DNA of 62,734 nucleotides, counting the filler, from Collodictyon triciliatum (lineage: Eukaryota), in assembly GCA_043381765.1 (NCBI GenBank). It is 5 parts of 4 records of this genome, joined end to end, with 100 filler letters (N's around TTAATTAATTAA, not from the genome) between each part and the next. Parts side by side here need not be neighbours in the genome. Positions count along the whole stretch, not along the records: positions 1 to 14,312 come from JBHJMP010001853.1; 4 more parts are not named here. One strand, 5' to 3'. Below, in pieces: positions 1,225 through 17,588 of this stretch. The stretch's first letter is position 1, and the number at the start of each line of letters is the position of its first letter. The notes beneath the pieces were generated by a model that did no database searches, was not told where the DNA came from, and saw only the letters and a list, made by a program, of their open reading frames with translations. Position numbers and translations under genes: made by a program.

Positions 1225-1226
1225 TT

Positions 1227-1841
1227 TTATTTCTTAGGGTTAGGGGGTCGTCCTCGTCCACGCTTGATTACAACTTTTGGCTCTGGCTCCGGCTCCGGCT
1301 GCAAAGCCGGTTCTGGCTCTGGCTCTTCTACTTTTCTCTTCTTGTATTTTCTTTTTGATTCAGAAACTATCTTTTCAATTGTCTGCTTCTCTAGCTTCTT
1401 GGCCTCTGCAATATCATCCTTTAGCTTTTCGCTTTCTGCTTCTTGCTTGATCTTTCTTGTTCGTTGCCTACCTTTTACTGCCTTGTCCATACCCTTGGCA
1501 AGAGTTTCTTTTAACGTCTGTTTCGACTTGGCAAAGAAATAAACATCCTCGGGGTTAACCGACCATTTCTTTTTTTTATCCAGCGTAGAAAATCCATAGA
1601 GATCCACTTTTATTTTTTTTATCTCCTTTAAAGTTTCATCCGGCAAATAACTGATATACCCCCCCTTTACTAATTTCGGTTCAGTTTCTTTTTTCTCCAA
1701 ACTATCATTTTGGTATTTTCTAGGTTTTGGAATATAGGTAACAAAGTCATTCACTTTTATATCCTTGGGTTCAATGAACTCCCAATTGTCACTAAAGTCT
1801 TTTGGCAGTTTCGCTTTTATTTCCTCGGGAATCATTACCAT
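1227..1841 (-). CDS. Hypothetical viral protein with N-terminal globular domain, charged coil, EP repeats and C-terminal AT-hook
   Basis: First ATG at 1841 (the ORF track begins at a TTG); ends in KRGRGRPP AT-hook; converges on the integrase with a 2-nt spacer. Confidence 0.75.
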   Translation of the reverse strand: MVMIPEEIKAKLPKDFSDNWEFIEPKDIKVNDFVTYIPKPRKYQNDSLEKKETEPKLVKGGYISYLPDETLKEIKKIKVDLYGFSTLDKKKKWSVNPEDVYFFAKSKQTLKETLAKGMDKAVKGRQRTRKIKQEAESEKLKDDIAEAKKLEKQTIEKIVSESKRKYKKRKVEEPEPEPALQPEPEPEPKVVIKRGRGRPPNPKK

Positions 1842-1871
1842 TATCAATTATTTTATTTTTAGAATTAAACG

Positions 1872-1881
1872 CAACTTAAAG
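1872..1881 (+). promoter_or_regulatory. CAACTTAAAG motif upstream of ORF 1920
   Basis: Identical 10-mer occurs in sense orientation upstream of the TVpol-helicase gene (4519-4528, minus). Confidence 0.4.
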
Positions 1882-1919
1882 TTATCTCACTAAGATAATT
1901 TACGAACAACTCTTTAAAT

Positions 1920-2138
1920 ATGGATTCTCAAACACTCGATGCGAACATAGCCGCTCTAAAATACTTTGGTGTCCCCGCTAAGGACGTCTTTGAAGCTCTC
2001 ATGCGTTCCGCTCGCCGCAAAGAAAGTTTACAAAAACATTATATCAAAAGAAAAACAGAAGAGAAAGAAAAATACAAATGGAGAAACCCCGAGGTCACTG
2101 TGTACATTGATAAACAAGGAAATAAGTCTTATAAATAA
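1920..2138 (+). CDS. Small basic hypothetical viral protein (72 aa)
   Basis: ATG ORF filling the space between neighbours; stop codon lies within a hairpin shared with the convergent TVpol gene. Confidence 0.65.
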   Translation: MDSQTLDANIAALKYFGVPAKDVFEALMRSARRKESLQKHYIKRKTEEKEKYKWRNPEVTVYIDKQGNKSYK

Positions 2139-2163
2139 ATTTGTGCAATTGCACTAATTTATT
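2134..2163. terminator. Palindromic hairpin at convergent 3' ends
   Basis: AATAAATTTGTGCAATTGCACTAATTTATT is a 30-nt palindrome with one mismatched pair and covers both stop codons. Confidence 0.65.
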
Positions 2164-4489
2164 CAATTCGTTGTCTCTTCTGCTGACTCTCGGCAAACTC
2201 GGGAATTGTTGCGCAGACTCCTGGGTTTCTAAGCTTACGGCGAATCTCCATGTAGTTCAAGACATATTTGCTGTGGTGGTTAGTCGTGACATTATATTCT
2301 TTTTTGAATTCGATCCATTCTTTGTTATGACCAAATTTGTTTTTGTCCATTAGCTCATACTTTGGAAAGTATTGGGTCATAAAGAATCTATACAGATCAT
2401 ATAGTTCTGTGTGATACAAATCAAACTTGACACTGTCAAACCAACGATAACGATTAGTATCAATTCCAACAATCTTATTATATTTGTTCATCTCACTTTC
2501 GTTCCAATCCATAAACACATATTCAATAAAACTCTGAATCACTGATTTGTGTGACTCAGCCATTTCTTCCAGCATCTCACACTTTGGCATTTTGTTGAAA
2601 TCAAAACTTGGATTATACATGTTGAGTAATAACAACAAAAACTTTCTATTAAAATCTTCATCATCAGTTTCTGCTGCAAGTTGTTCCTCTTCTGATTTTT
2701 GTAGACGTGATTCAGAACATTCAATCACACAGAATCGGCGCATGTTGTCACGTTCAAATTTGACACCGATGCTTTTGTTTGTGCATAAAAATGTATTGAC
2801 ATAACATTTCTTTTTTTTGGGATCATTGCACATTTTTCTAAGATTGGTATATTGTCGGTCCACTAGGTCCTTAATTTCTCCCTGGAGTCCCTTGACGTTT
2901 TGAAATTCTGCCTCCTCGCAAATAAGTGCAAGGCATCCCTCAAGCATTGCATTGCGATTTCCAAACACCTCTTCAAAATTGCACGGGGCGCGCCAATACT
3001 GTGTTCCTAGAAGTTTGTCTCCAAAATGCAATTTCAAGAAACTTGATTTGCCTGTGCCTCCTTTCTTATTCGTCATAATAATCATCTTCTTAATTTTCTT
3101 GTGCGGGTTATAGATGATGTGCGCCAAGTACTGCAAAAAGTAAATATATGCATCTTGCTTTCCGTTGCACAACAGATTGAATATTTGATGGTAATGCTTT
3201 GATTTTATAAAATCCTCTGCCATTGTTGTGTGATAATGCGTAACATGGATATGTTTAAGATATTCATGATAATTTTCAAAGTCAGTAACTTTTTCGGCAA
3301 ACATTTTTTCAAAGGCAAACCCCGTGAACAAATTATAGTAGGAATAATTCCTAGTATCCATGTAAGGCACAAAATCAAATTTTTCATATTTTCTTTTGCC
3401 GTGCTTGCACAAAAGATTTGTGAATTTAGTGGCATTGGTTAAATTAAATTCTTCAAAATAACATTCTTTGCTAACATGCTCAAATTCTTGTTTATCTACA
3501 CCAATGGTTCTATAAAACTTGTCTCCAACTCTAAAATGAGTTTTTTCAAATTCTTCAATGCCCAGACTCTTATAGAGTACCTCCTGTTTGTCAATCTTTT
3601 CAAAGTCAAACGGGCTCTCCATTGATTTTTCTTTTATGACAACCTGATAACCGGTTTCTTGAAAAATAATTTCCTGACAATAATCTAATATTTCTTGGGG
3701 AAATTCTTTTTCGTTTTCAATTTTACGGACGGCACCCCCGTCGTACATGCCCAGGTCCAGCTGTCTATTTTTTTGTCTGAGTGCATTCTCAAATACAATT
3801 AGACATTCTCTTTCAACACTTTGGAAATAGTAAGACATTGCTCGTCCATACTTGTTATCGTCTTTTTCAAGCATTGGCTTTTTCCCAACTTTTAATTTAT
3901 GCCAATGTGGGACATTGACCCAAACATGTGCCGTGATAATATCGACTTCGTTTTTTAATTTTTTAAAGAATTGGTCTGTGTATGCAATAGGTGGTATTCC
4001 TCCATACAATAAAGTGCAGACATAACTTTTAAAAGTTTCTCGATCAATGTTTAACTTTTCCATGTATTCTTTAAAAATATTATCACGGTTAAAACAATAC
4101 TCTTGTAATGCCTCAACAACAATCCCGTTTTTATTAGCATACTGTAATATGAACGAGGGGTGAGCGTTCACAAAATCCAGGTCGTGGTAATACTTGGATA
4201 GCATTGCGTTACGAACGTCTCGCCAAGTATTTGCCAAACAATCAGTTGGACATACCCTTCCTACACCCCATACCCCCTTATGATTTTGTAATGCACTATA
4301 TTCTTTACCCATAGAATGAATACTAGTATAAGTATACAAATATACTTTAGGGTCAAGAGTGCATTTTCGTGACATTCTAATAAGCTTTTGCTTTATATCT
4401 TTCGGAACAATAGCATCTGAACACTTACACAGAAAGTCAGCGATTTCTTTGTCAAAAATGTAGGTATAGCTCTGGGATATCTGGCTCAT
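2159..4489 (-). CDS. TVpol (PolA-related primase/polymerase) fused to SF3/D5-like helicase
   Basis: Motif A YYHDLDFVNAHP, motif B RETFKSYVCTLLYGG, SYYFQSVE, motif C GMYDG; helicase Walker A GGTGKS, Walker B LICEE, motif C FLCTN, MRRFCVI. Confidence 0.88.
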   Translation of the reverse strand: MSQISQSYTYIFDKEIADFLCKCSDAIVPKDIKQKLIRMSRKCTLDPKVYLYTYTSIHSMGKEYSALQNHKGVWGVGRVCPTDCLANTWRDVRNAMLSKYYHDLDFVNAHPSFILQYANKNGIVVEALQEYCFNRDNIFKEYMEKLNIDRETFKSYVCTLLYGGIPPIAYTDQFFKKLKNEVDIITAHVWVNVPHWHKLKVGKKPMLEKDDNKYGRAMSYYFQSVERECLIVFENALRQKNRQLDLGMYDGGAVRKIENEKEFPQEILDYCQEIIFQETGYQVVIKEKSMESPFDFEKIDKQEVLYKSLGIEEFEKTHFRVGDKFYRTIGVDKQEFEHVSKECYFEEFNLTNATKFTNLLCKHGKRKYEKFDFVPYMDTRNYSYYNLFTGFAFEKMFAEKVTDFENYHEYLKHIHVTHYHTTMAEDFIKSKHYHQIFNLLCNGKQDAYIYFLQYLAHIIYNPHKKIKKMIIMTNKKGGTGKSSFLKLHFGDKLLGTQYWRAPCNFEEVFGNRNAMLEGCLALICEEAEFQNVKGLQGEIKDLVDRQYTNLRKMCNDPKKKKCYVNTFLCTNKSIGVKFERDNMRRFCVIECSESRLQKSEEEQLAAETDDEDFNRKFLLLLLNMYNPSFDFNKMPKCEMLEEMAESHKSVIQSFIEYVFMDWNESEMNKYNKIVGIDTNRYRWFDSVKFDLYHTELYDLYRFFMTQYFPKYELMDKNKFGHNKEWIEFKKEYNVTTNHHSKYVLNYMEIRRKLRNPGVCATIPEFAESQQKRQRIE

Positions 4490-4518
4490 CTTGTTATTGT
4501 AATATCGTATTGATATCT

Positions 4519-4528
4519 CTTTAAGTTG
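4519..4528 (-). promoter_or_regulatory. CAACTTAAAG motif upstream of TVpol-helicase
   Basis: Same 10-mer as 1872-1881, 29 nt before the ATG. Confidence 0.4.
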
Positions 4529-4572
4529 GAAATTTAATAATCTGGGGATATATATTTTTTGTCAATTTATGG

Positions 4573-4690
4573 AATGCCCCCAACTTATACCCCCGTAGTA
4601 TCATTTATATTATTCTTTATCTTATTATATCTTTATATAACAATCTTTATATAAAAATATATAAAGGGGTATTGGGGGCATTGGGGTATT
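4573..4690. promoter_or_regulatory. Origin-like structure: C/G-run inverted repeat around an AT-rich core with an internal hairpin
   Basis: AATGCCCCCAA(CTTA)TACCCC at 4573-4593 versus GGGGTATTGGGGGCATT at 4666-4682; CTTTATATA-AAAA-TATATAAAG hairpin at 4645-4666; ATCTTTATATAA occurs twice. Confidence 0.5.
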
Positions 4691-4701
4691 ACTTTTTAAG
4701 A

Positions 4702-4781
4702 GTTTACAAAAAAGACGTGGTGGATGAACAGAAAACGGAACTGTAAAAACGTAAAAGAGTACAAAGTCACTTTTTATTCCC
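4702..4781 (+). repeat. Direct repeat copy 2
   Basis: Near-identical to 1-79. Confidence 0.95.
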
Positions 4782-4783
4782 CC

Positions 4784-4984
4784 CTATACCCCTCCACCCC
4801 CTTCATCAAAAGTTACACGAAATGGTTCGTCAGCAATAATTTGTAAAATAAAATCATTTTTTATAAAATCTTTTCTGTTTTTATTTGTTTTCTTTTTGGC
4901 TTTTTCTAAAGAATATATAAACAGCTGAAGTTCCTCCCAATTAACGAATTCGTGTGTAATATCATTTATAATTAGTTTGAACAT
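4784..4984 (-). CDS. Small hypothetical viral protein (66 aa)
   Basis: ATG ORF directly downstream of the ATPase and preceded by the conserved 17-nt motif. Confidence 0.6.
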   Translation of the reverse strand: MFKLIINDITHEFVNWEELQLFIYSLEKAKKKTNKNRKDFIKNDFILQIIADEPFRVTFDEGGGGV

Positions 4985-5009
4985 ACAATTCTAAACAAAT
5001 TATTTTTTG

Positions 5010-5744
5010 TCAATAGACTATTTCCGAGTTAAAATTCTTATAGACTTTGGGTTTTCTGGGTTGCAACAGATCGATGAACATAAAACAATAGTTTTCGTTC
5101 GTGCAATATTCTAAAAGTTCGTCAAACTTACTTTGCGATAAATTCGTTAGTTCGTTTAGTGCCTCTCGTTCTCGCTGGTTGCTGGTGTAAAAAGAAATTA
5201 AGTGAGTTGCGTTTTGTCTGAGTTTTGGATTCATCAATCTGATAGCCTGACTCACTATTATGATACTGAGATTATAATGTCGGTGTTTAAGAAAGTTCTT
5301 TAACATATTTTTAGTCGGTCTTTCGAAAACTGTGCTCAAGTCGTCAAGCACCAGGAGGTACTGGTCTTTCTTCCAATCGTCGGGTTTTGTTATATCCTCG
5401 AGTATGTTATCAAATATTTCATCAGTAAAATTATCAAAGCTTCTTTTTTTTGAAAAGCGAACACCCTCATAGCTGACATCGGAAATTTTACCATCCACCA
5501 TATTAGAAGAACAAAAATAACACTTTTCATAATACTTATAATATAATTCTTTTTGACGAAGCAGATTAGCGATTAAAATAGATTTCCCTGAGCCCGTCTT
5601 TGCAGAAATTAACATCAAGTACGGTCTACTCTCGGCCGGGTCAGGAAGCGCCTCCAACAGTATTTTTCTTTTACTTTTTTTTATGGCAGTCAAGGGTTGG
5701 ACCTTGAAATTATTGACTATCTTTTCTTCCATACAGTTATTCAT
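5010..5744 (-). CDS. A32-like (FtsK/HerA) DNA-packaging ATPase; true start possibly 5732
   Basis: Walker A ISAKTGSGKS, Walker B YLLVLDDL, KHRHYNLSIIIVSQ and PKLRQNATH motifs typical of Polinton/virophage/NCLDV packaging ATPases. Confidence 0.93.
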   Translation of the reverse strand: MNNCMEEKIVNNFKVQPLTAIKKSKRKILLEALPDPAESRPYLMLISAKTGSGKSILIANLLRQKELYYKYYEKCYFCSSNMVDGKISDVSYEGVRFSKKRSFDNFTDEIFDNILEDITKPDDWKKDQYLLVLDDLSTVFERPTKNMLKNFLKHRHYNLSIIIVSQAIRLMNPKLRQNATHLISFYTSNQREREALNELTNLSQSKFDELLEYCTNENYCFMFIDLLQPRKPKVYKNFNSEIVY

Positions 5745-5753
5745 AAAATAAAA

Positions 5754-6107
5754 TCAACGGAACAATACATTGGGGTCAAACTCGTATTCTCTTGTTTGTT
5801 CTTTGTCTACAGTTTCCTGTTTGGCTTTTTTATTCATTCGTTTGTTCATTTTATAAGCCTCTTCTTGTGTCAAGTATTGCACTATCTTATCGACTTTTGA
5901 ATTGATTGCGCTGTAATCGTGTGAAGGCTGCTTCGCTTTCTCGTATGTTTTTATTGTTTGAGCAATCTCTTTATTCTTTTTCTTTGCCTCTGTGGCTTTG
6001 ACTTGGATTTTTGCGAGATGAGCCTTTTGCTTTTCAGAAGCAACTCGTTTTGTTTTTCTTTTGTTTTTTTCTATGGTTTCCATATCGTTATCTGAATCAG
6101 AGTTCAT
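5754..6107 (-). CDS. Basic coiled-coil hypothetical viral protein (117 aa)
   Basis: ATG ORF co-directional with the ATPase; KRVASEKQKAHLAK basic helix; preceded by the 17-nt motif. Confidence 0.7.
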   Translation of the reverse strand: MNSDSDNDMETIEKNKRKTKRVASEKQKAHLAKIQVKATEAKKKNKEIAQTIKTYEKAKQPSHDYSAINSKVDKIVQYLTQEEAYKMNKRMNKKAKQETVDKEQTREYEFDPNVLFR

Positions 6108-6141
6108 AACCTTTCCAAGAAAATAATTTCTGAGTTAGATT
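6108..6141. promoter_or_regulatory. Bidirectional promoter made of two back-to-back 17-nt motifs
   Basis: The 34-nt intergenic region is exactly ATTTTCTTGGAAAGGTT (minus) plus AATTTCTGAGTTAGATT (plus), each abutting an ATG. Confidence 0.6.
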
Positions 6142-6906
6142 ATGGATAGAGCATATTACATTCACGTGGATTCAGCCAACAGATCAACCGGAAGTATATC
6201 AGACTTTAACTTTGCCACGACGCAGAACCGGTATGTTGCAAGCTCAGGTAAAGTTGCACTTGAAAGTATTCAAATCCCTTATGCCGTGCACAATGTTACT
6301 AGTGCCAATAATACATTAGTCTTTATTTGTAGTGTTAACAACAGCCCCGTTTCATACAATGTGTCACTTGAAACTGGATTACAAACCATCAATGAAATAG
6401 TTACTGACATCAGAACAAAGATAAACGCGGCAACCGCAGGCCAGGGAGCCGCAGCAGAAGTTACTGTTTCATTTTTAAGTGGCAAGCAAAAGATAGCAAT
6501 CAAAGCAGCAGGTCCAAATGTTTCATATGAACTGTTTGTGAATTCTAGTACATGTAGAGAGCTAATAGGACTAACAGCAAATCTTACGTTCAACACTAGT
6601 TTCGTTGAGCTGCAGAATATGGTCAATGTCCGTCCGTTTGATTATGTGTATCTAGTCAGCCCGAATATTCAGAGTTCAAGTTTTGCATCAAACATAGGGG
6701 GCAATGGCATCGTCGCAAAGATTCCGCTGAGTGTTGGTTCACGGTACTCGAATTATTATGAGGTGAATGACAATATCCTAGAGAATCTGATGGACTGCTC
6801 GTATATTCCGTTCAGCTGGAATTTCCGGCTGGTTGATAGACTGGGCAATACAATCAACCAACTTCAGGACTACAGCTTCACGCTGCGGATTATTCCAGAC
6901 TTTTAA
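6142..6906 (+). CDS. Probable minor capsid protein (penton, single jelly-roll)
   Basis: IHVDSANR..G...DF, ALESIQIPY..HNV...NNTLVF, DYVYLVS, IVAKIP and FRLVDRLGN...YSFTLRI follow the PLV/NCLDV penton pattern; beta-rich, 254 aa, next to ATPase and fibre. Confidence 0.72.
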   Translation: MDRAYYIHVDSANRSTGSISDFNFATTQNRYVASSGKVALESIQIPYAVHNVTSANNTLVFICSVNNSPVSYNVSLETGLQTINEIVTDIRTKINAATAGQGAAAEVTVSFLSGKQKIAIKAAGPNVSYELFVNSSTCRELIGLTANLTFNTSFVELQNMVNVRPFDYVYLVSPNIQSSSFASNIGGNGIVAKIPLSVGSRYSNYYEVNDNILENLMDCSYIPFSWNFRLVDRLGNTINQLQDYSFTLRIIPDF

Positions 6907-6921
6907 TTTCTTGCTTAATGT
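6905..6921 (+). promoter_or_regulatory. 17-nt motif before fibre gene
   Basis: AATTTCTTGCTTAATGT-ATG; 15/17 identical to 14099-14115. Confidence 0.6.
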
Positions 6922-9309
6922 ATGGGTTTTTTCATAACAGAAGAAAAGGAACTACCGGAATTTTCCAGTCAAGACGCAAACAAAGTATTAAAAGTCGATC
7001 CGAGCGGGGTTTATCTACAGTGGCTACAGGAGACAACGACACCGGCTGAGCTTCCAAGTCAAACGGGGAATGCTGGACGTTTGCTGACAACAAATGGCTC
7101 AACTCCGTCGTGGACTAATGGTCCTATAGGATTGGGTACAACTGGGGCTGCTACTCCGATGCTTTGGTTTGGAAGCAATAACAACGGCTTTGCGGAAGGA
7201 TGGAGTGCCGGTGGCGGGGCAACGGGAGTAAGCGAGATTACAAATGGCGCAGTATGTTGTACATTTCAAAATGGGGCTATTAGACTGCCTGGTGGTAATC
7301 CAATAAGAAGCAATGGCAACGCGGCATCTCGGTTTCAGTGTACCAGTGATGTACCAAATATGCAAAATTCTGTGACTACCGGATCTGTTGGAACCGATCG
7401 TATTGTTAATGTGAGTTCAGCCAATTGGGCATCAACTTCATTAGACTTGGTAGCCAGCAATTTAAATGATACACCAGGCTCACTTAATGCTAGCCAGATG
7501 GGTATTGAGATAAAACAAAATCAAATCGTGTTTAATGGAGCTGGGATAACGGCATCAGGCACTACTTTGCCAGCTCGTGTCACACGAATGACTATTGATA
7601 ACACAGAAATAAGTACGAGTTTACCATTGGCTGTAGGCAACTATATGTCTGCGTCAAGTATTATTATAGCCACGACTGGCTTTGTGATGAATCAACCGGG
7701 AACAGAAGCCGCTCAAGCTTACACATTTCGTAATTTTGACACTAGTGATTCCAATCGAAATAATAGTAATAGACAAGGAATATATAGTCCTGCAATTGAA
7801 GCAATAGCTATATCAACAAACTCTGTAAGCAATATATCAGGAAGTACCGCTGGAAGACCCAATGCAGTAGAGCGCTTTAGGGTCGATGACAATTATGTGA
7901 CTGTGACGAATTCATTAAATCTTTCACGAGTAGGGTCAGCAGCTGAACCTAACCTTTTGTTTGGAGACAATACAACAATCCCAGCTACAAGTCGAACTGG
8001 TATCTGGGGCTCGGATGACAATATATTTTTTAGCACGGGAGGAGTTCAGAGATTCAGTATTGGCAATGCAAATGCTGCGATCTCAGGAAATTTAATTATG
8101 GCTACTCCAGCGATGGGTGTCACAGGAGCAAACGGCGGCATTGGTGTCGTGGCAGGTATAGGTGCAACCGCCGGATTGTATTCAACAACAAGTACAAATT
8201 CAGGCATTCGATTTCAAGACACTAATGCCAATGTACGTATTTTAACTAATGGAATGAATGTAATAGATTGCACGCAGGTGTCTGGTGCAGGTATAGTAAG
8301 TATGGAAGAAGCAATTACAATGAAAAAAGCTGTACGTTTTCCTTTTCAGTCTCGAAATCATACTAATATTTCTATAGGTACAACAAGTCCTATGATGATA
8401 CGAGCGTTGATATCTGACAATGTACCAAATACTTTTGATTTACCTTCATTAGGATTGAAATTAACTGGCCAAACCCATATTATTATTCCTTATAAAGATG
8501 CAGCCAGTACAGGCACGTTAGCTATGTGGACTGGTGGCGGAACGGGACACGCAATTCACGTTATGCATAATTCAACAAAAACTGTTGTCACAGGTAGCAG
8601 CACATATCCATTAATAGAGGGTGGGGTATACACTTGTGTGTGGCATTGGTTATCTTCAACTGCAGGCCTACTTCAAGGCATCTGGTATGCATGGATTGAT
8701 GGGCTGGCAGCGACATTAACTGTGCCCGACCCGTTTGTAATTGGTACAAATTTAGATTTTGTTACAGGAGGAAATGCAGCTGCTAGAATACAAGGGATAA
8801 ACTCAGGAGCAAACTCTGAAGTAGGTATGGTTATTAATGGGAGCATGAGAACTAAATTTACAGTAAATGATACCGAAGTTCAAAACTCGCTACGATTGTT
8901 TAAGGCGCGGATTACTGATTGGATAATTCACGACAGCGGCACGCACAAAGTGAGTCGAAATTCTCCTAGTAAAATCATATTAACAAAACAGGGTTCAGGA
9001 AGCTCAAATGCAGTAATTGTTTTTCCGGCAAGTACCGATGCCCCGGATGGACTAGAAATTCAAGTCATGGTTTGGATGTTGTCGGGTAGAAGTGGCTCAG
9101 GGGTTCAGATTGTGCGGTTTGATTCAGCCAGTCCAGCAAATAACGCCTTTGTGCTTGGTTCCAGTGGCACAGGTATCACACTTGGAGGAACAAGTTACAC
9201 CGTAACAGAAGGAACCAATTTTACAGCTACCAATTTCCGTACCACTATAGGACGCTGGATGGTTGATTCAACTCGATTTAACTGTACTCCTGCTTTATCA
9301 TCCGCGTAA
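6922..9309 (+). CDS. Phage tail-fibre-like virion fibre/spike protein (795 aa)
   Basis: G/S/T/N-rich beta protein; LPSQTGNAGRLLTTNGSTPSW and GSAAEPNLLF...TGIW...IFFSTGGVQRFSI resemble phage tail-fibre repeats; directly follows the penton. Confidence 0.7.
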   Translation: MGFFITEEKELPEFSSQDANKVLKVDPSGVYLQWLQETTTPAELPSQTGNAGRLLTTNGSTPSWTNGPIGLGTTGAATPMLWFGSNNNGFAEGWSAGGGATGVSEITNGAVCCTFQNGAIRLPGGNPIRSNGNAASRFQCTSDVPNMQNSVTTGSVGTDRIVNVSSANWASTSLDLVASNLNDTPGSLNASQMGIEIKQNQIVFNGAGITASGTTLPARVTRMTIDNTEISTSLPLAVGNYMSASSIIIATTGFVMNQPGTEAAQAYTFRNFDTSDSNRNNSNRQGIYSPAIEAIAISTNSVSNISGSTAGRPNAVERFRVDDNYVTVTNSLNLSRVGSAAEPNLLFGDNTTIPATSRTGIWGSDDNIFFSTGGVQRFSIGNANAAISGNLIMATPAMGVTGANGGIGVVAGIGATAGLYSTTSTNSGIRFQDTNANVRILTNGMNVIDCTQVSGAGIVSMEEAITMKKAVRFPFQSRNHTNISIGTTSPMMIRALISDNVPNTFDLPSLGLKLTGQTHIIIPYKDAASTGTLAMWTGGGTGHAIHVMHNSTKTVVTGSSTYPLIEGGVYTCVWHWLSSTAGLLQGIWYAWIDGLAATLTVPDPFVIGTNLDFVTGGNAAARIQGINSGANSEVGMVINGSMRTKFTVNDTEVQNSLRLFKARITDWIIHDSGTHKVSRNSPSKIILTKQGSGSSNAVIVFPASTDAPDGLEIQVMVWMLSGRSGSGVQIVRFDSASPANNAFVLGSSGTGITLGGTSYTVTEGTNFTATNFRTTIGRWMVDSTRFNCTPALSSA

Positions 9310-9339
9310 ACAATTTTTATTAATAGTAAGAATTGTTTA
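9307..9339. terminator. Hairpin at convergent 3' ends
   Basis: TAAACAATTTTTATT-AAT-AGTAAGAATTGTTTA: 15-bp stem (2 G:U on the plus strand) running from one stop codon to the other. Confidence 0.7.
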
Positions 9340-12300
9340 GTAGATTGCCTGCGAAAGATTCTTGATAGGTGTGCCAAAGACACGCTCTGTGACAGGCCCG
9401 TAAGATTTGCGGCCAAATGCACCGGAGCTGACAAAGAACTGGGCGTCTCTGGCCGAGCCGAATGCGCGCTTCTGGCCCCCGCCGTGGACGACGTAATTGA
9501 GCCCCTCTCGTCGGATGGTGTAATTTGATTGGCCCGGAATAATGATGGTACCGAGGTCAGAGTTGACGACCCTGCCCAGGTTTTGCTGGGGGAGAAAAGC
9601 GACGTTTCTCAGTTTCTGGTCAGTCGTGTCTCCGTATTTCGGCTTGTACTTGAGAGGCCATGACCCTTCTTTACGGTATATTTTTAATGCGCTTTGTAGG
9701 CCTGGAATGTTGCCTTCAAAAAATAATTCTAGTATGTCCATAAGCGCACTAGTGTCAGGAGTTAAATCGACGTATTCAATATTAAATTCTCTCATGGCTG
9801 CTTCAAAAGTTTGCTTATCTACTATACCATAATCATTAGCTCTTGCTGGATTACCCTGTTCGATATACCTCGATACTTTTCTAGCAAAGCGTGATTGATT
9901 GCCGTATTCACGGTTGTCCGACACTTGAGGACGCATTGGGTTAAATATTGGCTGTTGACTACCGCGTCCATTGCCGCCAGGAGGGCCGCCACCAGGAGGG
10001 CCGCCTGCTCCAGGACCAAACATTGGAACTGCCCCTATAATAGGACTAGCAGTAGCTGCTTGCATTGATTGTCTTCTATTTGCTGCCATATTATTACCAC
10101 CGAAAATATTTCCTCGCACTGCATCACCTGCCGCCTGAAAAATGCCAGCGCCAGCGCCAGCTGCAGCTTGTAAAAAGCCAGCACCAGCATTAAAAACAGC
10201 CCCAGCCATTGCTCGTGCTGCAGCCAAATTTCCAGGAACAACTGGAGACAAAGGTGGCAGACCAGGGGGTGTTGGTTGACGTCGACGCACAGCGGGACTT
10301 TGAAACGGTACCACAGCTGCGGGGCGAGGAGGGCTAGTAGCTAATTGTTGTATTCTAGGGTTTGCTTGCAAGTTTTGAGGTGCATTCGGAGGCAATGCTG
10401 CAAAATCATCAACAAATTGCCAAGGGCCAGGCACCATAAAAGGACTAGGAGGGGGTCCAGGGGTAGCTTGTCTCACAGCAATTTGTCGTTGTGCACTTTG
10501 GGGAGTATCCTCGCGAGGAGCTCTTCCTACTGGTGTCCCCAGCTCATCTGTGGGAACTGCAGGAAACGCAGCGTTATAATAAAAAGTAGCTGTATCAGCA
10601 AGTTGTTCTCCTCGGGCTTTTAAATCGGCTGCAAATCTTCGTAGATCTTCTATTGTTTGAGCTTGTTCAATAACAAGCGGATTTTCAAGATTCAATAATG
10701 CATTTAAATCATTAACCTGTTCTTTAAGATCCTCTATTTCGACATCTTTGGTGTCAGGTGCGTCTTGCAACAAAATTAAATTTTGTACTTGAGTTTCTAA
10801 TTCCCGAATTCTATTCAGTTGTATTTCTGCATTTAATGCTTGTCTCTTAGCTTTATAACTATCCTGAACTCTTCTTAAATTATCTCTTCGCCTGTTTAAT
10901 TCTTCTGTGTTAAAACTAGAACTATGATTAGGTCTTTTTGGTGTTCTTGGTGTCTTTGGTGTCTTTGTTACTGAAGATGCAACTGAAATGTTTGTTGTAT
11001 CAAGTCCGACTCTATAGTTGCCTGGTATAATCTTGTTGAGAGCTGCACGTTGTTCCTCATGTCGGGCACGTTCATTTTGCATTTGCACACCCATGTCCTG
11101 TAATCTCTTTTGATAAATTTCTTTGTCTTGCATCAAGCCAGTTGCCAGTTGAGACGCAGTGTTAACAGTGTCTTGAAGTTCTTGTATATATTGGTTTTGA
11201 TCACTCATTGCATCATTCAATGTATCGATTTGTTCATATGCGTTATCTAAGTTTTTTTGTAAAAGCTCTATGTGTTCTGCTAATTTTTTAATTAATGCAT
11301 CTGCTTCTATTTCTATATTTGTAGGTGTTATATCTTTATCTAGAACCAAATCTTTAGATTTTTCTTTAGTTTTACTATTTTCTATTTTATCTGTTTCATT
11401 TTGTTTTTTTATTTCATTCATTTTAGCACTCATATCAGCTAATTTTTGTGTTATGTTGGTAATACTGACACTCTTGCTAGTATCGGGAACAGCAGTCCTG
11501 TTTGGTGTTTCTTTTGGACTAAATAATTCTCTTGCAGATTGTTTAATTGGTGATGGACTCTTAAAATCAGTTTTACTCGTTGTACCAAATCCAGAACGCT
11601 GAGTAAATGTAGGCGTGCTTTGTGCTATAATTGACCCTGCACTCATATTTGATGCATCAGGATCAAAATCTATCGTAGATTCGTTGAGCATAGACTCTGT
11701 CTGTGCCTGTGTAAATGATCCTGATTGATTCAGCTGTTGTAGGCTTTGATTTAAAAAAGACTGTGCAGGATCTAATATCATACTCTGGGTTGTTTGGTCA
11801 GGGTTAAATGTAGTGTTTGGTGATGCCGCTCCCAGGACTTGAGGACTAAATAATATGTTAGATGAACTCCTTGCCCTAGCAGCATAATTGGATTGATTAA
11901 AATATTGTGAGCGCTCAAATGTAGTAAACAAATTCCGCATGGACTGTGATAAAGCCGCACGAGAAATATGCCCACTTGTTTGTATCATGCTAACAATTGA
12001 CCGTGCAAGTAAATTACTAAAATTCATATTATCAAATTGGTTTAACTTGGCATCCAGTGAATCGTTTGCAATTGCTTCTAAATCTTTTTCTTCACGTTCT
12101 ATTAATTCCTTATAACCTTCATTTAGTTCCACAACTGGGATTAGTGCTAAATCTTCTGCCCTAACAACCTCTGCTCTAGTTTTCATTACTGCTTGACAAT
12201 TTTGTTGAAAATCTCTTACGTTGCGAATGTATTCTTGTAGCTCTGTTGGCAATGACTGATAAAAATTAAAAACACCTTGGTCTGTTGGTTCAGTCGCGTT

Positions 12301-14082
12301 TCGCACCAAAAAATCTCTGATAAATACTTGTAGATCTCTGGCTAATTTATTACCAAATTCAATTAACTCTCCCTGGCTGAGAGCATTTGTAATTTGTCGA
12401 AATAGTTCTTCCTCGTTTATTACTGCTGCTGGTGTTGATAACGCAATTATTGCATCATTAACTTTTTCTTCCCCCTGCTTATCTTGGGCAATTGTTTCGT
12501 CTGTATTTTGTATGTATCTTCTGTGATATTCCTGCAAAATTTCTTTATTTAGTCTAAGTCTTTGCACTTCTTGTCCTTTTCTTAACTTTTCAGCCATTTC
12601 CTCTTCAGCCTGTTTTTTATTTTTAAGAGCTGCCTCTCTTTTGATTCGTTTTTCTTCTTCAATCTTTTTTAATTGTATCTCTCGTGCCGCGTTTCGTGCT
12701 AAAACTCTTTTTTCACGTTCATTTGCCTCTAGTGCTTGTTTATATTCTATTTCAAGTTCAGCAATAAACCTATAATACGCAACATTCCAACATATTAATT
12801 CCAAAATTTCTTCTTCATCATATTCTAATTCTTCGCCAGCAGCAAAGCTATAAAGATATAATCGCACGTCTTCGTCAAATTCATTGTCCATGTAATTCAT
12901 AAACTCAAATTCCTTTTCGTCACCAAAATCTTTTGGAACGTTTTCTTTATAACTAAACCCTCTGTGTTTATACCACTCTTTAAAGCAAAGATTCATACCT
13001 GTGTAAACTTTGGATGCTACTCTCTGACCACGCACATTTTTTTTCTGAAGGTATCCTATTGTCAAATACTCTTTTTTATTTCCAATTTCTGCTCTAACGT
13101 CATCTGATAATCTTTGCCACCTTTCCTTTCCTTTTTGACTTTCCATTGCCTCGTCAAATTGTTCAAAATACGCATTTAGCTGATCCATTGTTGTATCCAA
13201 TTGTCCCTTATCTTCTTCTTCCTGTACTGTCTCAGCATCCTCTACATCTTTCTCTGCTACAAGGTCTTCCAATTCTTGATCTATTAGTGCAGCTTCTTTT
13301 TTTAGTTCTTCATTAATTTGCGATTGTTTTATTCTATTTGCATTTTGCATATCTATTTTACTCATGCCATCTGGAGGGTCCATACTATGTAACACTATAT
13401 ATTCCAACACCACCGTACTCAGACTAGTATCATTTGGATTTTCCTCTAGTAAACGATTTAGCTCCTTTTCTCTATTCAAACCTTCTTTTTGATTATAAAT
13501 TCTACGTCTATCTGGATCAGGAGCTCTATACACCTCATCTTCTATAGCTCTTTCCATTTGTTCATTAGTCATACCAACTGGAGGGTCTGATTTTAATGCC
13601 AATATATATTTCCAACGTGGTATTTCTGGATTGTCTGCTTCTGCCTCATTTAATTGATTTCTATAAAATTCAAGTTCATCATCAGTGTATTTTTTAACTT
13701 CAGGATCATATGGAAATGTGATGTAATATGGTTCTAATAAATCAGCCCTTCCCTGATTTTTTTTAGGGTCCAAAGTATCTATTTCTCTTGGCAGTTTTGA
13801 TTTTACTATATTGTCATACAATTTCTCTAATTGTATAAAGTCATCCATGTCTAATTTTGTTTCTTCACGTCTAGCTCTATAATATAAAACATGAAAATCA
13901 TTTAATGCTTGATTAAAATTTTTACTTGGTTTTTGCAGATAATATAAAATATAATTAAATTTATACCCAATTAATGAATCATTATCAAATAAACTTTCAA
14001 TATTGTTTTCTTTAAAGTGTTGTGTATACCAAGGTATTTTATTTTTTTTCAACTGTTCTATGGTATAATATTTGGAGCTCAT
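9337..14082 (-). CDS. Large coiled-coil/low-complexity viral protein (~1581 aa)
   Basis: Uninterrupted ORF; first ATG (MSSKYY) at 14082, and the upstream extension in the ORF track overlaps the divergent gene; E/K/Q-rich heptads plus S/T/P- and A/G/P-rich tracts. Confidence 0.8.
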   Translation of the reverse strand: MSSKYYTIEQLKKNKIPWYTQHFKENNIESLFDNDSLIGYKFNYILYYLQKPSKNFNQALNDFHVLYYRARREETKLDMDDFIQLEKLYDNIVKSKLPREIDTLDPKKNQGRADLLEPYYITFPYDPEVKKYTDDELEFYRNQLNEAEADNPEIPRWKYILALKSDPPVGMTNEQMERAIEDEVYRAPDPDRRRIYNQKEGLNREKELNRLLEENPNDTSLSTVVLEYIVLHSMDPPDGMSKIDMQNANRIKQSQINEELKKEAALIDQELEDLVAEKDVEDAETVQEEEDKGQLDTTMDQLNAYFEQFDEAMESQKGKERWQRLSDDVRAEIGNKKEYLTIGYLQKKNVRGQRVASKVYTGMNLCFKEWYKHRGFSYKENVPKDFGDEKEFEFMNYMDNEFDEDVRLYLYSFAAGEELEYDEEEILELICWNVAYYRFIAELEIEYKQALEANEREKRVLARNAAREIQLKKIEEEKRIKREAALKNKKQAEEEMAEKLRKGQEVQRLRLNKEILQEYHRRYIQNTDETIAQDKQGEEKVNDAIIALSTPAAVINEEELFRQITNALSQGELIEFGNKLARDLQVFIRDFLVRNATEPTDQGVFNFYQSLPTELQEYIRNVRDFQQNCQAVMKTRAEVVRAEDLALIPVVELNEGYKELIEREEKDLEAIANDSLDAKLNQFDNMNFSNLLARSIVSMIQTSGHISRAALSQSMRNLFTTFERSQYFNQSNYAARARSSSNILFSPQVLGAASPNTTFNPDQTTQSMILDPAQSFLNQSLQQLNQSGSFTQAQTESMLNESTIDFDPDASNMSAGSIIAQSTPTFTQRSGFGTTSKTDFKSPSPIKQSARELFSPKETPNRTAVPDTSKSVSITNITQKLADMSAKMNEIKKQNETDKIENSKTKEKSKDLVLDKDITPTNIEIEADALIKKLAEHIELLQKNLDNAYEQIDTLNDAMSDQNQYIQELQDTVNTASQLATGLMQDKEIYQKRLQDMGVQMQNERARHEEQRAALNKIIPGNYRVGLDTTNISVASSVTKTPKTPRTPKRPNHSSSFNTEELNRRRDNLRRVQDSYKAKRQALNAEIQLNRIRELETQVQNLILLQDAPDTKDVEIEDLKEQVNDLNALLNLENPLVIEQAQTIEDLRRFAADLKARGEQLADTATFYYNAAFPAVPTDELGTPVGRAPREDTPQSAQRQIAVRQATPGPPPSPFMVPGPWQFVDDFAALPPNAPQNLQANPRIQQLATSPPRPAAVVPFQSPAVRRRQPTPPGLPPLSPVVPGNLAAARAMAGAVFNAGAGFLQAAAGAGAGIFQAAGDAVRGNIFGGNNMAANRRQSMQAATASPIIGAVPMFGPGAGGPPGGGPPGGNGRGSQQPIFNPMRPQVSDNREYGNQSRFARKVSRYIEQGNPARANDYGIVDKQTFEAAMREFNIEYVDLTPDTSALMDILELFFEGNIPGLQSALKIYRKEGSWPLKYKPKYGDTTDQKLRNVAFLPQQNLGRVVNSDLGTIIIPGQSNYTIRREGLNYVVHGGGQKRAFGSARDAQFFVSSGAFGRKSYGPVTERVFGTPIKNLSQAIY

Positions 14083-14098
14083 AATATAACTTATATAA

Positions 14099-14115
14099 AA
14101 TTTCTTGGCTAATGT
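14099..14115 (+). promoter_or_regulatory. 17-nt motif before ORF 14116
   Basis: AATTTCTTGGCTAATGT-ATG. Confidence 0.6.
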
Positions 14116-14312
14116 ATGATTGTTGATGTTAGAAAAGCAAGCAGAGGTGTTGGTCGCTTTCTTACCCGGCACACGGACAACGCACTAAACAAACTGCAAC
14201 GATTAGACAAAGCCTACTCGGATTTGAATCGGGCAAGCGGTGGGCTGGTCGAGTTGGGGCTGCAGGGAACAGGAATCAAACCTGCATTCCAGACAATTGC
14301 CAACCCGCTGGT
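14116..14312 (+). CDS. Hypothetical viral protein, truncated by gap
   Basis: ATG preceded by the conserved motif; open to the contig end; basic amphipathic N-terminus. Confidence 0.6.
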
Positions 14313-14412
14313 NNNNNNNNNNNNNNNNNNNNNNNNNNNNNNNNNNNNNNNNNNNNTTAATTAATTAANNNNNNNNNNNNNNNNNNNNNNNNNNNNNNNN
14401 NNNNNNNNNNNN
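14313..14412. other. Artificial 100-bp contig linker (N44-TTAATTAATTAA-N44)
   Basis: Same six-frame-stop linker recurs at 25330-25429, 39670-39769 and 54009-54108. Confidence 0.95.
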
Positions 14413-14414
14413 GG

Positions 14415-14711
14415 ACGAAGCTTGAACGAATTCCAGGATTTGAGCATTATACTCATTACCGTATTTCGACCCATGGCAAAATGTGTGAATCATATACCTG
14501 GAGTAATTTGAAACAAATTAAAAAACGTGCAACTGGTTACAAAGTTGTTACTCTTTATAGTCGGGGCAAAAGTAAAACTTACAACGTGCATGAATTGGTC
14601 GCGTTGGCGTTTGTTGACAACCCAGGCAATTACAAACAAGTTATACACTGCAATGGAATTAAAACAGATAACAACCGTGAAAACCTCCGTTGGGCACCTG
14701 CAACTGACTAG
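14415..14711 (+). CDS. NUMOD4-HNH endonuclease-like protein, 5' end in gap
   Basis: Frame open from the contig start: RIPGFEHY..YRISTHGK (NUMOD4), GYKVVTL, VHELVALAFVDNP, VIHCNGIKTDNNRENLRW (HNH_3). Confidence 0.82.
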   Translation, partial: TKLERIPGFEHYTHYRISTHGKMCESYTWSNLKQIKKRATGYKVVTLYSRGKSKTYNVHELVALAFVDNPGNYKQVIHCNGIKTDNNRENLRWAPATD

Positions 14712-14754
14712 AATAAACTAAAAATCCCATAAATCAATTGAGTATGAAATAAAC

Positions 14755-14796
14755 TGATATTTATTTATTCTAGGTATATAGAATAAATAAATATCA
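14755..14796. terminator. Perfect 18-bp stem hairpin downstream of the HNH gene
   Basis: TGATATTTATTTATTCTA-GGTATA-TAGAATAAATAAATATCA. Confidence 0.7.
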
Positions 14797-15437
14797 ATAA
14801 AATGCGTATTTCAAAGCCAAACTTAATCTGTTACCCTCATAATCAAAACGAGAGCTCATAAATTTATAATCATATGAAAATGACAGTACATTGGTTATCA
14901 ATGGGATACATATTAACTGTGGTGCAACACTCTTAAAAAAACAAAACACTTGTGTGAAATGATATTCTAGGAATCCACGCTTGATAAATCGAGTTATTAA
15001 TCGTACATGAATATATAACTGCCAAATAGCAACTACATCAAAATCAAGGATTTGCAGTAGAGCAGCCGAAAAAAAAACGCAAGCTCTATGGTCTCGGGGA
15101 AAAAATCAGCATTATCTGGAAATTATCTCATATTATGATTTCATTAAAATTCGCTCTAGCATATGATATTTTGGGGCTTTTTTATAGAATAAAAATTGAG
15201 TTTCTGGATTACAGCAGTGATGTCTATAACAGCAAGGCTATATGTATATATCTATTGAATTCAATGTGTATAAAATTATGCATAATTGAGTTTTGTATAA
15301 TTAAAACAAAATGCACGTGAAAGTATCCAGTTTTATTGCCATATTCCTTTTACCGTTTCACGGAACTGCTGGATACAAAAAAATCTGGGGGAATCTCTTT
15401 GTGCGCTTCGAATTTTCAGTTCAGTAAAACATCTTAA

Positions 15438-17219: not shown

Positions 17220-17446
17220 CTTCCAGGATATTTCTTTCTTTTCTTTTTTTAATTAGGTCTGCGTCCGGTTTGAGATGAATAGGGTAAATCTTCGGATTGG
17301 AATACATATTTTTGAGAAAATGCTATTAGTTGAATGCATTTACACACGTGAGAGAATGATATGGTTAATAATTATTGTTCTTGCTGAAATATTACCATCA
17401 ACTAGATGCTAGAAAAATAAAGTGGGTACATTTTAATGCCAACTAA

Positions 17447-17492
17447 CAATTACAATTACAATTACAATTACAATTACAATTACAATTACAAT

Positions 17493-17586
<94 letters not shown>
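17447..17586. repeat. (CAATTA)n-(AAT)n compound microsatellite
   Basis: Direct reading. Confidence 0.97.

Positions 17587-17588
<2 letters not shown>

Follow-up and report, generated by a model that had tools for sequence, protein, structure and literature searches.

Gene Content of the Viral Contig

The window, that is, the whole stretch of DNA analysed (62,734 nt), consists of five joined contigs, the first of which (contig A, 1–14312) encodes an rve integrase, a primase-helicase, an A32-type ATPase, and a penton and represents part of a polinton-like virus or virophage-like element. The other four (contigs B–E, 48 kb) are eukaryotic in appearance, and no giant-virus sequence was found in the window. 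The integration/replication arm of contig A comprises the rve integrase (118–1224, plus strand), a 206-aa ORF (1227–1847, minus strand, ATG at 1841), and a DUF5906 primase-helicase (2159–4489, minus strand), and these three genes are flanked by 82-nt direct repeats. The remaining genes are a 66-aa ORF (ATG at 4984, minus strand), the A32-type packaging ATPase (5010–5732, minus strand), a lysine-rich 117-aa ORF (ATG at 6107, minus strand), the penton (6142–6906, plus strand), a 795-aa virion-type protein (6922–9309, plus strand), a 1581-aa ORF (9337–14082, minus strand), and a gene that begins at 14116 on the plus strand and is truncated at 14312, where the contig ends. Neither homologues nor family matches were found for the 66-aa and 117-aa ORFs, and a family search was likewise without result for the 1581-aa ORF, which is of low complexity, with coiled-coil-like and proline-rich stretches.

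Among the hallmarks of the polinton-like virus/virophage supergroup, the penton and the A32/FtsK-type packaging ATPase are present in contig A, and no double jelly-roll major capsid protein was recognised up to the cut at 14312, beyond which its gene may lie. Domains of the adenain-like maturation protease and the protein-primed polymerase of virophages and polintons proper were not found in the contig A ORFs scanned, which include the DUF5906 primase-helicase instead. As far as a partial contig can indicate, this points to a polinton-like virus more than to a virophage proper. The visible part of the element encodes no RNA polymerase, and bacterial-type signals are not enriched: the numbers of sigma-70-like and terminator-like sites, 41 and 12, are close to the expected 42.7 and 11.2, respectively.

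The ATPase, which has 240 aa when read from 5732, matches Pfam Pox_A32 at 7e-09, above the curated cut-off, and a PHROG terminase large subunit at 5.4e-14, and PF04665 is found in 26 of its 27 homologues. When 14 of the 27 homologue matches were aligned at their starts, 11 N-termini fell at the residue matching 5732, including those of the three closest homologues (92, 84, and 54% identity), and the other three began two residues further upstream. This agrees with the sequence-only reading, in which 5732 had been proposed as the ATPase start. The penton (minor capsid) is a single jelly-roll protein of 254 aa, modelled by AF2 with a pLDDT of 91.6, whose top PDB matches in Foldseek are the pentons of mavirus (6g42, E 1.4e-10) and Sputnik (3j26_N), with the adenovirus penton base also matched. 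In BFVD, it matches, among others, proteins of Tetraselmis viridis virus S1 and of the DUF5901 family, and DUF5901 is matched by 18 of the 57 aligned penton family members. The penton start is the same in the closer of two homologues inspected, the other having one extra residue.

The 795-aa protein has 24 unnamed homologues, with the N-terminal 250 aa conserved and the C-terminus variable in the alignment, and all three homologues inspected start at the same methionine. Its model is poor (pLDDT 53.5), neither a PDB profile match nor a capsid match was obtained, and the leads, weak and of phage-tail type, suggest a fibre in preference to a capsid protein. The description of these genes as a structural module holds only in part: the penton is confirmed, the ATPase is A32-like, and the 795-aa protein is at most a candidate fibre. 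Relatives of the truncated gene at 14116 are 119 aa long, and four of four homologues begin at the same methionine. The ATGs adjoined by the motif described below are therefore N-termini of independently predicted homologues in the 795-aa, penton, 119-aa, and ATPase families.

A 17-nt Unit in Fixed Register with Start Codons

Six 17-mers, each on the strand of its own gene, end directly 5' of an ATG, exactly where the sequence-only reading had placed them. Leave-one-out matrices were used to rank 28,592 contig A positions, with the five training sites holding ranks 1–5 by construction, and the left-out copies are AATTTCTTGGCTAATGT (14099–14115, plus strand, before ATG 14116; rank 6), AATTTCTTGCTTAATGT (6905–6921, plus strand, before ATG 6922 of the 795-aa gene; rank 7), AATTTCTGAGTTAGATT (6125–6141, plus strand, before the penton ATG 6142; rank 9), ATTTTCTTGGAAAGGTT (6108–6124, minus strand, before ATG 6107 of the 117-aa ORF; rank 15), ATTTTATGAATAACTGT (5733–5749, minus strand, before the ATPase ATG 5732; rank 35), and AATTTGTTTAGAATTGT (4985–5001, minus strand, before ATG 4984 of the 66-aa ORF; rank 88). 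The sites before 4984 and 5732 are thus weak, the copy at 4985–5001 being the weakest of the six. The copy at 5733–5749 includes an in-frame upstream ATG at 5744.

Counted from the ATG, the proposed anatomy comprises an AT-rich core (all A/T from −21 to −18, then AWTTTNTK from −17 to −10), a variable stretch of about 4–5 nt, and two bases that never vary, A at −5 and T at −1. It is the distal core that is best conserved and not the bases adjacent to the ATG, the last three of which are TGT at four sites, ATT at one, and GTT at one. The copies at 6905 and 14099 are identical at 15 of 17 positions and supply much of the motif score; this identity ends at the unit edges, which is to be expected of a signal under selection and not of a duplication.

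Where genes follow one another in tandem, the gaps after the upstream stop codon (15, 21, and 25 nt at three junctions) are filled or overlapped by the unit, the copy at 6905–6921 overlapping the penton stop codon (6904–6906) and filling the 15-nt gap to the 795-aa gene. The divergent spacer at 6108–6141 is exactly 34 nt long and consists, as had been claimed, of two copies back to back, with the precision that they lie on opposite strands and not in tandem. The other divergent spacer (14083–14115) measures 33 nt and accommodates, besides the copy at 14099, the out-of-register variant AATTTTATATAAGTTATATT (14083–14102, minus strand) before ATG 14082 of the 1581-aa ORF, the core of which, beginning at −20, shares a self-complementary AATT (14099–14102) with the core on the opposite strand. 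Both divergent spacers lack a gene end and hold only two units between the start codons, so that the unit cannot be a terminator alone. The convergent spacer at 9310–9336 has inverted ends, ACAATT...AATTGT, similar to the 3' part of some units.

The integrase, the 206-aa ORF, and the primase-helicase have no in-register copy. Looser variants were picked by an unanchored motif search, which is not significant by itself, before the integrase ATG 118 (TATTTCTCTATTAAATTATT, 98–117, plus strand, core at −20) and at −45 of the primase-helicase ATG 4489 (AATTTCCAACTTAAAGA, 4518–4534, minus strand). With looser cores before the integrase, the primase-helicase, and the 1581-aa gene, the signal may extend to the whole element and not be confined to a structural module.

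Positional Enrichment of the Motif

The consensus followed by ATG has six matches in the window against 0.09 expected, all six in contig A, and none of 100 shuffles reaches six; this count is circular because the consensus was written from these same sites. An unselected test, which does not depend on this consensus, was based on ten ORF starts taken regardless of the motif, with the first ATG of each. The ATG-anchored information at −20 to −1 of these ten genes is 5.01 bits, a value reached by 7/5000 within-sequence shuffles, 103/5000 random-ATG sets, and 65/5000 AT-rich-ATG sets. The best six of the ten, anchored in the same way, give 82.8 bits with first ATGs, in which case the AATTTTATATAAGTTATATT variant enters the subset, and 95.1 bits with the 5732 start, against 54.5 ± 5.2 in the null, and the observed value is reached by 0/3000 sets in each of three null models, selection being allowed for. 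Moreover, contig A has 56 copies of the 8-nt core AWTTTNTK, mostly within genes, and an ATG lies exactly 17 nt after the core start in six of them (binomial P 1.9e-4), 17 being the commonest offset; in contigs B–E, this holds for 3 of 164 copies (P 0.6). The positional enrichment over background that had been anticipated is thus observed.

Motif discovery by position-free search on the upstream regions of this element is not significant: one site per sequence in 10 × 50 nt yields 106.4 bits, against 106.0 ± 4.4 in controls, 68 of 150 of which do as well. Since the similarity is not significant when the ATG anchor is removed, it is the fixed distance that carries the signal. The degenerate 17-mer alone has 14 matches against 5.5 expected (2.5-fold), the count with two mismatches allowed is near background (39 against 28), and none of ten consensus-like sites inspected elsewhere is followed by ATG. 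All of this evidence comes from one partial element.

Comparison with Known Viral Promoters

In the 60 nt upstream of each of the ten genes, a scan for known giant-virus motifs found AAAATTGA before 0/10, W5TGW5 before 2/10, and AT-flanked TCTA before 1/10, and TAAATG, AATGACA, and the giant-virus motif pattern AAATATTT each before 0/10. A short coding-strand motif close upstream of many genes, the mark of virophage and polinton-like-virus promoters, is found in contig A before six of ten genes in exact register, with looser copies before three. Motifs within about 30–100 nt of ORFs have been described for virophages and polinton-like viruses, and within 30 nt of the CDS for virophages; virophages and endogenous virophage types are reported to have type-specific upstream motifs in common with giant viruses, and a giant-virus motif is described as used by a polinton-like virus.

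In mavirus and the type 4 endogenous mavirus-like elements, the CroV late promoter is described as TCTA in AT-rich flanks. Contig A resembles them, as described, in having a short, conserved, AT-rich motif close upstream of genes, on a small element that carries an integrase and belongs to the polinton-like supergroup; such mavirus-type motifs are thought to be read by the late machinery of a giant virus, with different motifs in different element types. Unlike in mavirus, TCTA occurs in none of the six units, and its AT-flanked form lies upstream of the 206-aa ORF only; the mavirus motif is reported before all genes, whereas that of contig A is in register before six of ten. Furthermore, the distance between motif and ATG is invariant in contig A, an element with no known helper.

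Sputnik is reported to have a degenerate AT-rich late motif in common with mimivirus, located upstream of some virophage genes (12 genes according to a review, 8 of 16 late genes according to a transcriptome study). For mimivirus, the late motif is reported to comprise two AT-rich segments of 10 nt each with four degenerate bases between them, in contrast to the defined AWTTTNTK core at fixed spacing in contig A, a comparison made by description. Gezel-14T (PgVV) and its group are reported to have the mimivirus-type early motif AAAATTGA / WWWWWTGWWWWW, a motif that has served to connect polinton-like viruses to giant viruses. PgVV itself is described as a polinton-like virus that encodes a penton, an A32 ATPase, and a protein resembling a tail fibre, with giant-virus-type motifs before some genes and with genes expressed as single units. 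Contig A differs in that AAAATTGA precedes none of its ten genes and W5TGW5 only two; for PgVV, 5/10 motif matches are reported upstream of start codons, the account of these matches describing no fixed distance.

A similar architecture is found in the late and intermediate promoters of poxviruses and the late promoters of asfarviruses, in which an AT- and T-rich core of about 20 bp is described as followed, after a short spacer, by an initiator overlapping or abutting the ATG, so that the promoter is bound to the ATG and there is hardly any 5' UTR. The contig A unit is similar in this respect, but the TAAAT(G/A) initiator of poxvirus late promoters was not found, TAAATG being present at 0/10 contig A starts, and the resemblance is one of layout only and does not imply homology.

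Possible Function and Rival Explanations

Promoter function, the place of the transcription start, and who would read the signal and when are what we infer from these observations. The promoter reading retains a gene-start motif at one distance, present on the viral contig only, as in a compact promoter, but the motif matches no known giant-virus motif. Also weighing against this reading are the restriction of the evidence to one partial element, the non-significant position-free search, the weakness of two of the six sites, the poor support for the 66-aa and 117-aa ORFs as genes, and the frequency of the 8-nt core inside genes. With somewhat less than even confidence, we favour the view that, in this polinton-like virus or virophage-like fragment, the 17-nt unit is a minimal promoter, one per gene, whose likeliest reader is the apparatus of a co-infecting giant virus. 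The absence of an RNA polymerase from the visible part of the element and the likeness to small promoters of the giant-virus/poxvirus type point to such a reader. The unit would then comprise an initiator next to the start codon, and each gene would be transcribed separately. As the distance between unit and ATG never varies, transcription probably starts at the ATG or within a few bases of it, with a leader that may be very short or absent, as where an initiator overlaps the ATG. The two opposite-strand units at 6108–6141 would constitute a complete bidirectional promoter of 34 nt, and in the 33-nt spacer at 14083–14115 both promoter cores would overlap in AATT.

The same promoter role could be played with host RNA polymerase II as the reader, the unit being of the initiator type with a very short leader, in a helper-free polinton-like virus or an endogenous element. 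Some polinton-like viruses are reported to replicate without a giant virus, and for Tetraselmis viridis virus S1, which is among the close structural matches of the penton, giant-virus co-infection is described as not required; such helper-free viruses count against a promoter read by a giant virus, as does the lack of fit to any known giant-virus motif. Contig A also shares its assembly with eukaryote-like contigs and encodes an integrase. Nevertheless, the eukaryote-like contigs, 48 kb in all, lack the consensus with ATG, and their copies of the core show no preference for the +17 offset, which is weak evidence because few host gene starts are definable there, and a complete bidirectional promoter of 33–34 bp is unusually small for polymerase II, so that we consider this explanation rather unlikely. 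Quite improbable, in our view, is a unit that is not itself the promoter but part of a transcribed leader or a signal at gene junctions (for instance, a context for translation initiation, or 3'-end and restart functions combined between closely packed genes), with the promoter elsewhere, for example in the upstream CDS. The occupation of the gaps after stop codons at the three tandem junctions, the invariant T and A close to the ATG, and the inverted ends of the convergent spacer would suit such a signal, but conservation is best in the distal core, and between the divergent start codons there are only two units, with no end of an upstream gene, so that any promoter there would have to overlap the units or sit inside the opposite gene.

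Chance resemblance of short AT-rich spacers, sharpened by the post hoc choice of sites and start codons, would be compatible with a consensus derived from the sites themselves, a position-free search no better than controls, the modest enrichment of the 17-mer without ATG, the near-background count with two mismatches, and the choice of 5732 to fit the motif. Against this, the selection-aware anchored test gives 0/3000 even with first ATGs only, the unselected ten-gene test is exceeded rarely by shuffles and by random ATGs, the left-out sites rank high, the offset histogram peaks at 17, and homologues support the 5732 start independently, and we consider chance very improbable.

A more far-reaching form of the promoter reading, which we regard as distinctly unlikely, holds that the unit is the complete promoter-plus-initiator of an undescribed giant-virus system, with mRNA starts no more than about 5 nt from the ATG, bidirectional promoters of 33–34 bp, a helper tag, and a separate module of integrase, 206-aa ORF, and primase-helicase. 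If so, two abutting units would be among the smallest bidirectional promoters in any eukaryotic virus, the core W4-A-W-T-T-T-C-T-K (−21 to −10) could tag the helper of this polinton-like virus family in metagenomes, and the three genes would represent a separately regulated or separately acquired module.

Significance

On present evidence, the unit is one more element-specific upstream motif of the kind known from virophages and their relatives and not a new principle. Promoter motifs in common are described as now the main sequence-only means of pairing small parasitic viruses with giant viruses, and as explaining which of the endogenous elements can be activated by a particular giant virus. 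Compared with the degenerate AT-rich motifs described to date, a well-defined motif in rigid register makes searches easier and, if confirmed in relatives, would provide a usable tag for a poorly known group, that of the 795-aa family. It also fixes gene starts, such as that of the ATPase, and represents an extreme compaction, in which whole intergenic spacers of 15–34 nt would be signal alone.

A Fixed-Register Unit before Six Start Codons

Six 17-nt units lie in contig A (positions 1–14312) where the sequence-only reading had placed them, each on the strand of its own gene and with its last base adjoining the ATG. They occupy 4985–5001 (−), before a 66-aa ORF (4784–4984, −); 5733–5749 (−), before the A32-type ATPase gene (5010–5744 or 5010–5732, according to the start chosen, −); 6108–6124 (−), before a lysine-rich 117-aa ORF (5754–6107, −); 6125–6141 (+), before the gene of a 254-aa penton protein (6142–6906, +); 6905–6921 (+), before a 795-aa ORF (6922–9309, +); and 14099–14115 (+), before a gene of a 119-aa family that starts at 14116 (+) and is cut by the end of the contig at 14312. 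Positions −21 to −18 are AT-only and are followed by the core, A-W-T-T-T-N-T-K at −17 to −10, and then by a variable stretch; A at −17, T at −15 to −13, T at −11, A at −5, and T at −1 are invariant.

The spacer 6108–6141, which had been described as two copies back to back, does consist of exactly two units (34 nt), but these lie on opposite strands rather than as same-strand copies, each serving one gene of the divergent 117-aa/penton pair. Another spacer between divergent genes (14083–14115, 33 nt) holds a perfect plus-strand unit, while its minus-strand partner, AATTTTATATAAGTTATATT, precedes the ATG at 14082 of a 1581-aa low-complexity ORF (9337–14082, −) with its core displaced by three bases away from that ATG, both cores overlapping within a self-complementary AATT. 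At tandem junctions the entire gap is filled by the unit, and the unit at 6905 overlaps the stop codon of the penton gene.

The methionine abutted by the motif corresponds to the N-terminus of homologues whose starts were predicted independently, in the 795-aa family (three of three inspected) and in the 119-aa family (four of four). For the penton, the closest homologue inspected agrees and the other one inspected has one extra N-terminal residue. The start of the ATPase at 5732, which the motif had been taken to favor, is supported by 11 of the 14 homologues aligned (from 27 matches), including the three closest, which begin at the equivalent residue; the remaining three start two residues further upstream. 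Family and homologue searches found no support from homologues for the starts of the 66-aa and 117-aa ORFs.

Statistical Support for the Register

The consensus followed by ATG is matched six times against 0.09 expected, a figure that must be read with the fact that the consensus was written from the same sites. Ten ORF starts of contig A were therefore chosen blind to the motif, taking the first ATG of each, and aligned from −20 to −1 with the ATG as anchor. The anchored information content of these ten genes was 5.01 bits, a value reached by 7 of 5000 within-sequence shuffles, by 103 of 5000 sets of random contig A ATGs, and by 65 of 5000 sets of AT-rich ATGs. Enrichment of the ATG-anchored register over background was found in a selection-aware test, in which an exhaustive search for the best six of ten was run on the real set and likewise on each control set: the real set scored 82.8 bits when first ATGs were used and 95.1 bits when the ATPase was started at 5732, against a null of 54.5 ± 5.2 (maximum 84), and the observed value was reached in 0 of 3000 sets under each of three nulls. 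With the 5732 start, the best-six subset is exactly the six sites of the sequence-only reading.

When each site was left out in turn, the five-site matrices ranked it 6, 7, 9, 15, 35, and 88 among 28,592 positions, ranks 1–5 being those of the training sites; the sites at 4984 and 5732 are weak, and those at 6905 and 14099 are nearly identical. The core occurs in 56 copies in contig A, six of them with an ATG at exactly +17 (P = 1.9e-4), which is the commonest offset, and contigs B–E show 3 of 164 copies with an ATG at that distance (P = 0.6). None of ten other consensus-like sites inspected is followed by ATG.

With this one element, similarity alone would fail a MEME-type test, and it is the fixed register that carries the signal. 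The upstream motif search that had been proposed was performed with our own one-site-per-sequence EM at widths of 10, 14, and 17 on 50 nt upstream of each of the ten genes, and it recovered the motif at widths 14 and 17. Nevertheless, its score was no better than that of controls, being reached by 68 of 150 control sets and 21 of 60 shuffles, and therefore cannot serve as evidence.

Identity of the Element and Distribution of the Unit

The window is not one molecule and its features are not readable across the linkers. It comprises five contigs within its 62,734 bases, A (1–14312), B (14413–25329), C (25430–39669), D (39770–54008), and E (54109–62734), separated by linkers at 14313–14412, 25330–25429, 39670–39769, and 54009–54108, each made of 44 N, TTAATTAATTAA, and 44 N. 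Contigs B–E look eukaryotic, with gene pieces that include Sec23/24 domains split between short ORFs, NF-X1/R3H, leucine-rich repeats, and a glycosyltransferase of family 92, and the whole finding is confined to contig A. Two longer masked N runs are present in contig D (40456–40865 and 51664–52379), and an Rfam scan of the window returned no families.

Besides the genes already named, contig A encodes an rve integrase (118–1224, +), a 206-aa ORF (1227–1847, −; ATG at 1841), and a DUF5906 primase-helicase (2159–4489, −). The 254-aa protein is a penton, according to its homologues and to matches of its predicted structure. It has 121 homologues, 56 of which were aligned, and 18 of the 57 aligned sequences match Pfam DUF5901; the best solved matches of its predicted model (pLDDT 91.6) are the mavirus penton (E = 1.4e-10), a Sputnik penton chain, and adenovirus penton bases, and a search of predicted structures gave, among the best matches, Tetraselmis viridis virus S1 and a DUF5901 protein from Pyramimonas orientalis virus. 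Given this gene set, including the penton, contig A represents part of a polinton-like virus or virophage-like element. A protease, a protein-primed polymerase, and a double jelly-roll capsid protein were not among the products recognised in contig A, which is a partial contig, and an exact look-up found none of its ten proteins in the collection. A contig search with a seven-sequence alignment gave one locus in an actinobacterial MAG, which was rejected as a relative (32 residues, 43% identity).

The in-register unit precedes the 66-aa ORF, the ATPase, the 117-aa ORF, the penton, the 795-aa gene, and the 119-aa-family gene, and the 1581-aa gene has the shifted variant; an in-register copy is absent from the integrase, the 206-aa ORF, and the primase-helicase. 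The unanchored search picks TATTTCTCTATTAA at −20 relative to the integrase ATG and AATTTCCAACTTAA at −45 relative to the primase-helicase ATG, but these loose copies are suggestive only, because that search performed no better than controls.

The genes carrying the unit had been regarded as a structural module, which holds for the ATPase and the penton but is doubtful for the 795-aa protein as a capsid protein, since the latter has no PDB profile match and only weak tail-fibre-like leads. Its family is small (24 homologues, all unnamed), with a highly conserved N-terminal part of 250 residues, a variable C-terminal part, and repeats of the GxxGxxLTTxG...W type. Conservation and repeats of this kind fit a fibre or a receptor-binding protein better than they fit a capsid protein, and a tail-fibre-like protein is described in the passages compared on the polinton-like virus PgVV. 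The AF2 model is too poor to decide identity (pLDDT 53.5), its Foldseek matches to tail-fibre proteins have TM-scores ≤0.18, and an Atlas lead is weak (0.91, recognition below threshold). FimH, the best match in a PDB sequence search (E = 0.006), was rejected as not credible, and tblastn of the protein against phage records gave no match. Searches of Pfam, PHROGs, and PDB assigned no family to the 1581-aa ORF; it contains long coiled-coil-like, Ser/Thr/Gln-rich, and Pro/Gly-rich stretches, and GC along it drops from about 0.44 to 0.33.

Possible Function of the Unit

Since the unit is strand-specific, tied to the ATG, and the sole sequence between two divergent pairs of starts, the simplest reading is a minimal promoter. 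The initiator would then lie at or next to the start codon and each gene would give a separate mRNA with an almost absent leader. Such a promoter could be read by the machinery of a helper giant virus, which we tentatively hold at slightly below an even chance: no RNA polymerase gene is present in the available part of the element, the very small size of the unit would fit giant-virus transcription systems, and giant-virus promoters are used by virophages and at least some polinton-like viruses in the passages compared. Nevertheless, no giant-virus sequence was found in the window, and the described giant-virus motifs do not match the unit and are not systematically present upstream of the ten genes. 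This mismatch also speaks for a promoter read by the host instead, as does the replication of some polinton-like viruses without a helper, reported in the same body of passages; reading by the host seems rather unlikely, though well conceivable. That the unit is a leader or junction signal is improbable, and a chance origin of the pattern, set against the three nulls of the selection-aware test, highly improbable. A terminator-only reading was rejected, as the divergent spacers contain no gene ends, and bacterial promoter and terminator scans gave counts equal to shuffled expectation.

As a minimal promoter, the unit would have counterparts in layout. The late promoters of poxviruses and asfarviruses, as described in the passages compared, share the arrangement of core, short spacer, and initiator at the ATG, but their TAAATG is absent from all ten gene starts here. 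Upstream motifs specific to element types are established there for virophages and endogenous mavirus-like elements, TCTA in type 4 and other motifs, shown in a figure supplement, in other types, and metagenome searches for virophage motifs use 30-nt upstream windows. The motif of contig A belongs with these, its sequence not being among those named in the passages compared. Literature searches found neither AATTTCT together with "virophage", with the proviso that supplements, including those on other-type motifs, could contain a similar motif, nor a joint mention of "mavirus", "TCTA", and "late promoter". It differs from known motifs most clearly in its invariant distance from the ATG and in the bidirectional spacers made of two units.

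Other Features of Contig A and a Copy in Contig C

The integrase, the 206-aa ORF, and the primase-helicase, exactly the genes without an in-register motif, lie between the two copies of an 82-nt direct repeat (1–82 and 4702–4783, 91% identity). This repeat may delimit a module that is mobile or was acquired separately, or may mark a regulatory region, and it may be longer than seen, its left copy starting at the contig end. The 10-mer CAACTTAAAG (4519–4528, −) lies at −39 to −30 of the primase-helicase start, and its reverse complement CTTTAAGTTG (1872–1881, −) at −40 to −31 of the 206-aa ORF start, that is, equally far from the start but in the reverse orientation; 62 of 2000 shuffles reached a shared 10-mer by chance, and this one may be a second signal for replication genes. 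The start of the primase-helicase gene and the end of the 66-aa ORF are separated by an AT-rich non-coding region of 294 nt (4490–4783), far longer than the other spacers of contig A, which holds a 20-nt inverted repeat (4621–4640/4647–4666) and may be an origin or control region.

The 206-aa ORF ends (1227–1265, −) in KRGRGRPPNPKK, which follows a PEPEPEP stretch and looks like an AT-hook; a putative binder of AT-rich DNA encoded beside putative AT-rich promoters would be worth attention. Upstream of this ORF (1848–1875, −) there are an AT-flanked TCTA at −25 and a W5TGW5 match, ATAATTGATAAT, from −10 into the ATG. Published passages describe the former for giant-virus late promoters (CroV) and the latter for early ones (mimivirus-type), and in AT-rich DNA patterns this loose may each turn up once by chance.

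In the eukaryote-like contig C, AATTTCTTGCTTAA (27471–27487, −) was rejected as a seventh site, as just a 14-codon ORF comes after it. It has an ATG directly after it and is identical to the first 14 bases of the 6905 unit (14-mer 27474–27487); the match is due to chance or is the remnant of a related element. Finally, the convergent 795-aa and 1581-aa genes are separated by a spacer of 27 nt (9310–9336) that has inverted ends, ACAATT first and AATTGT last, and is a candidate for a shared 3′-end signal.
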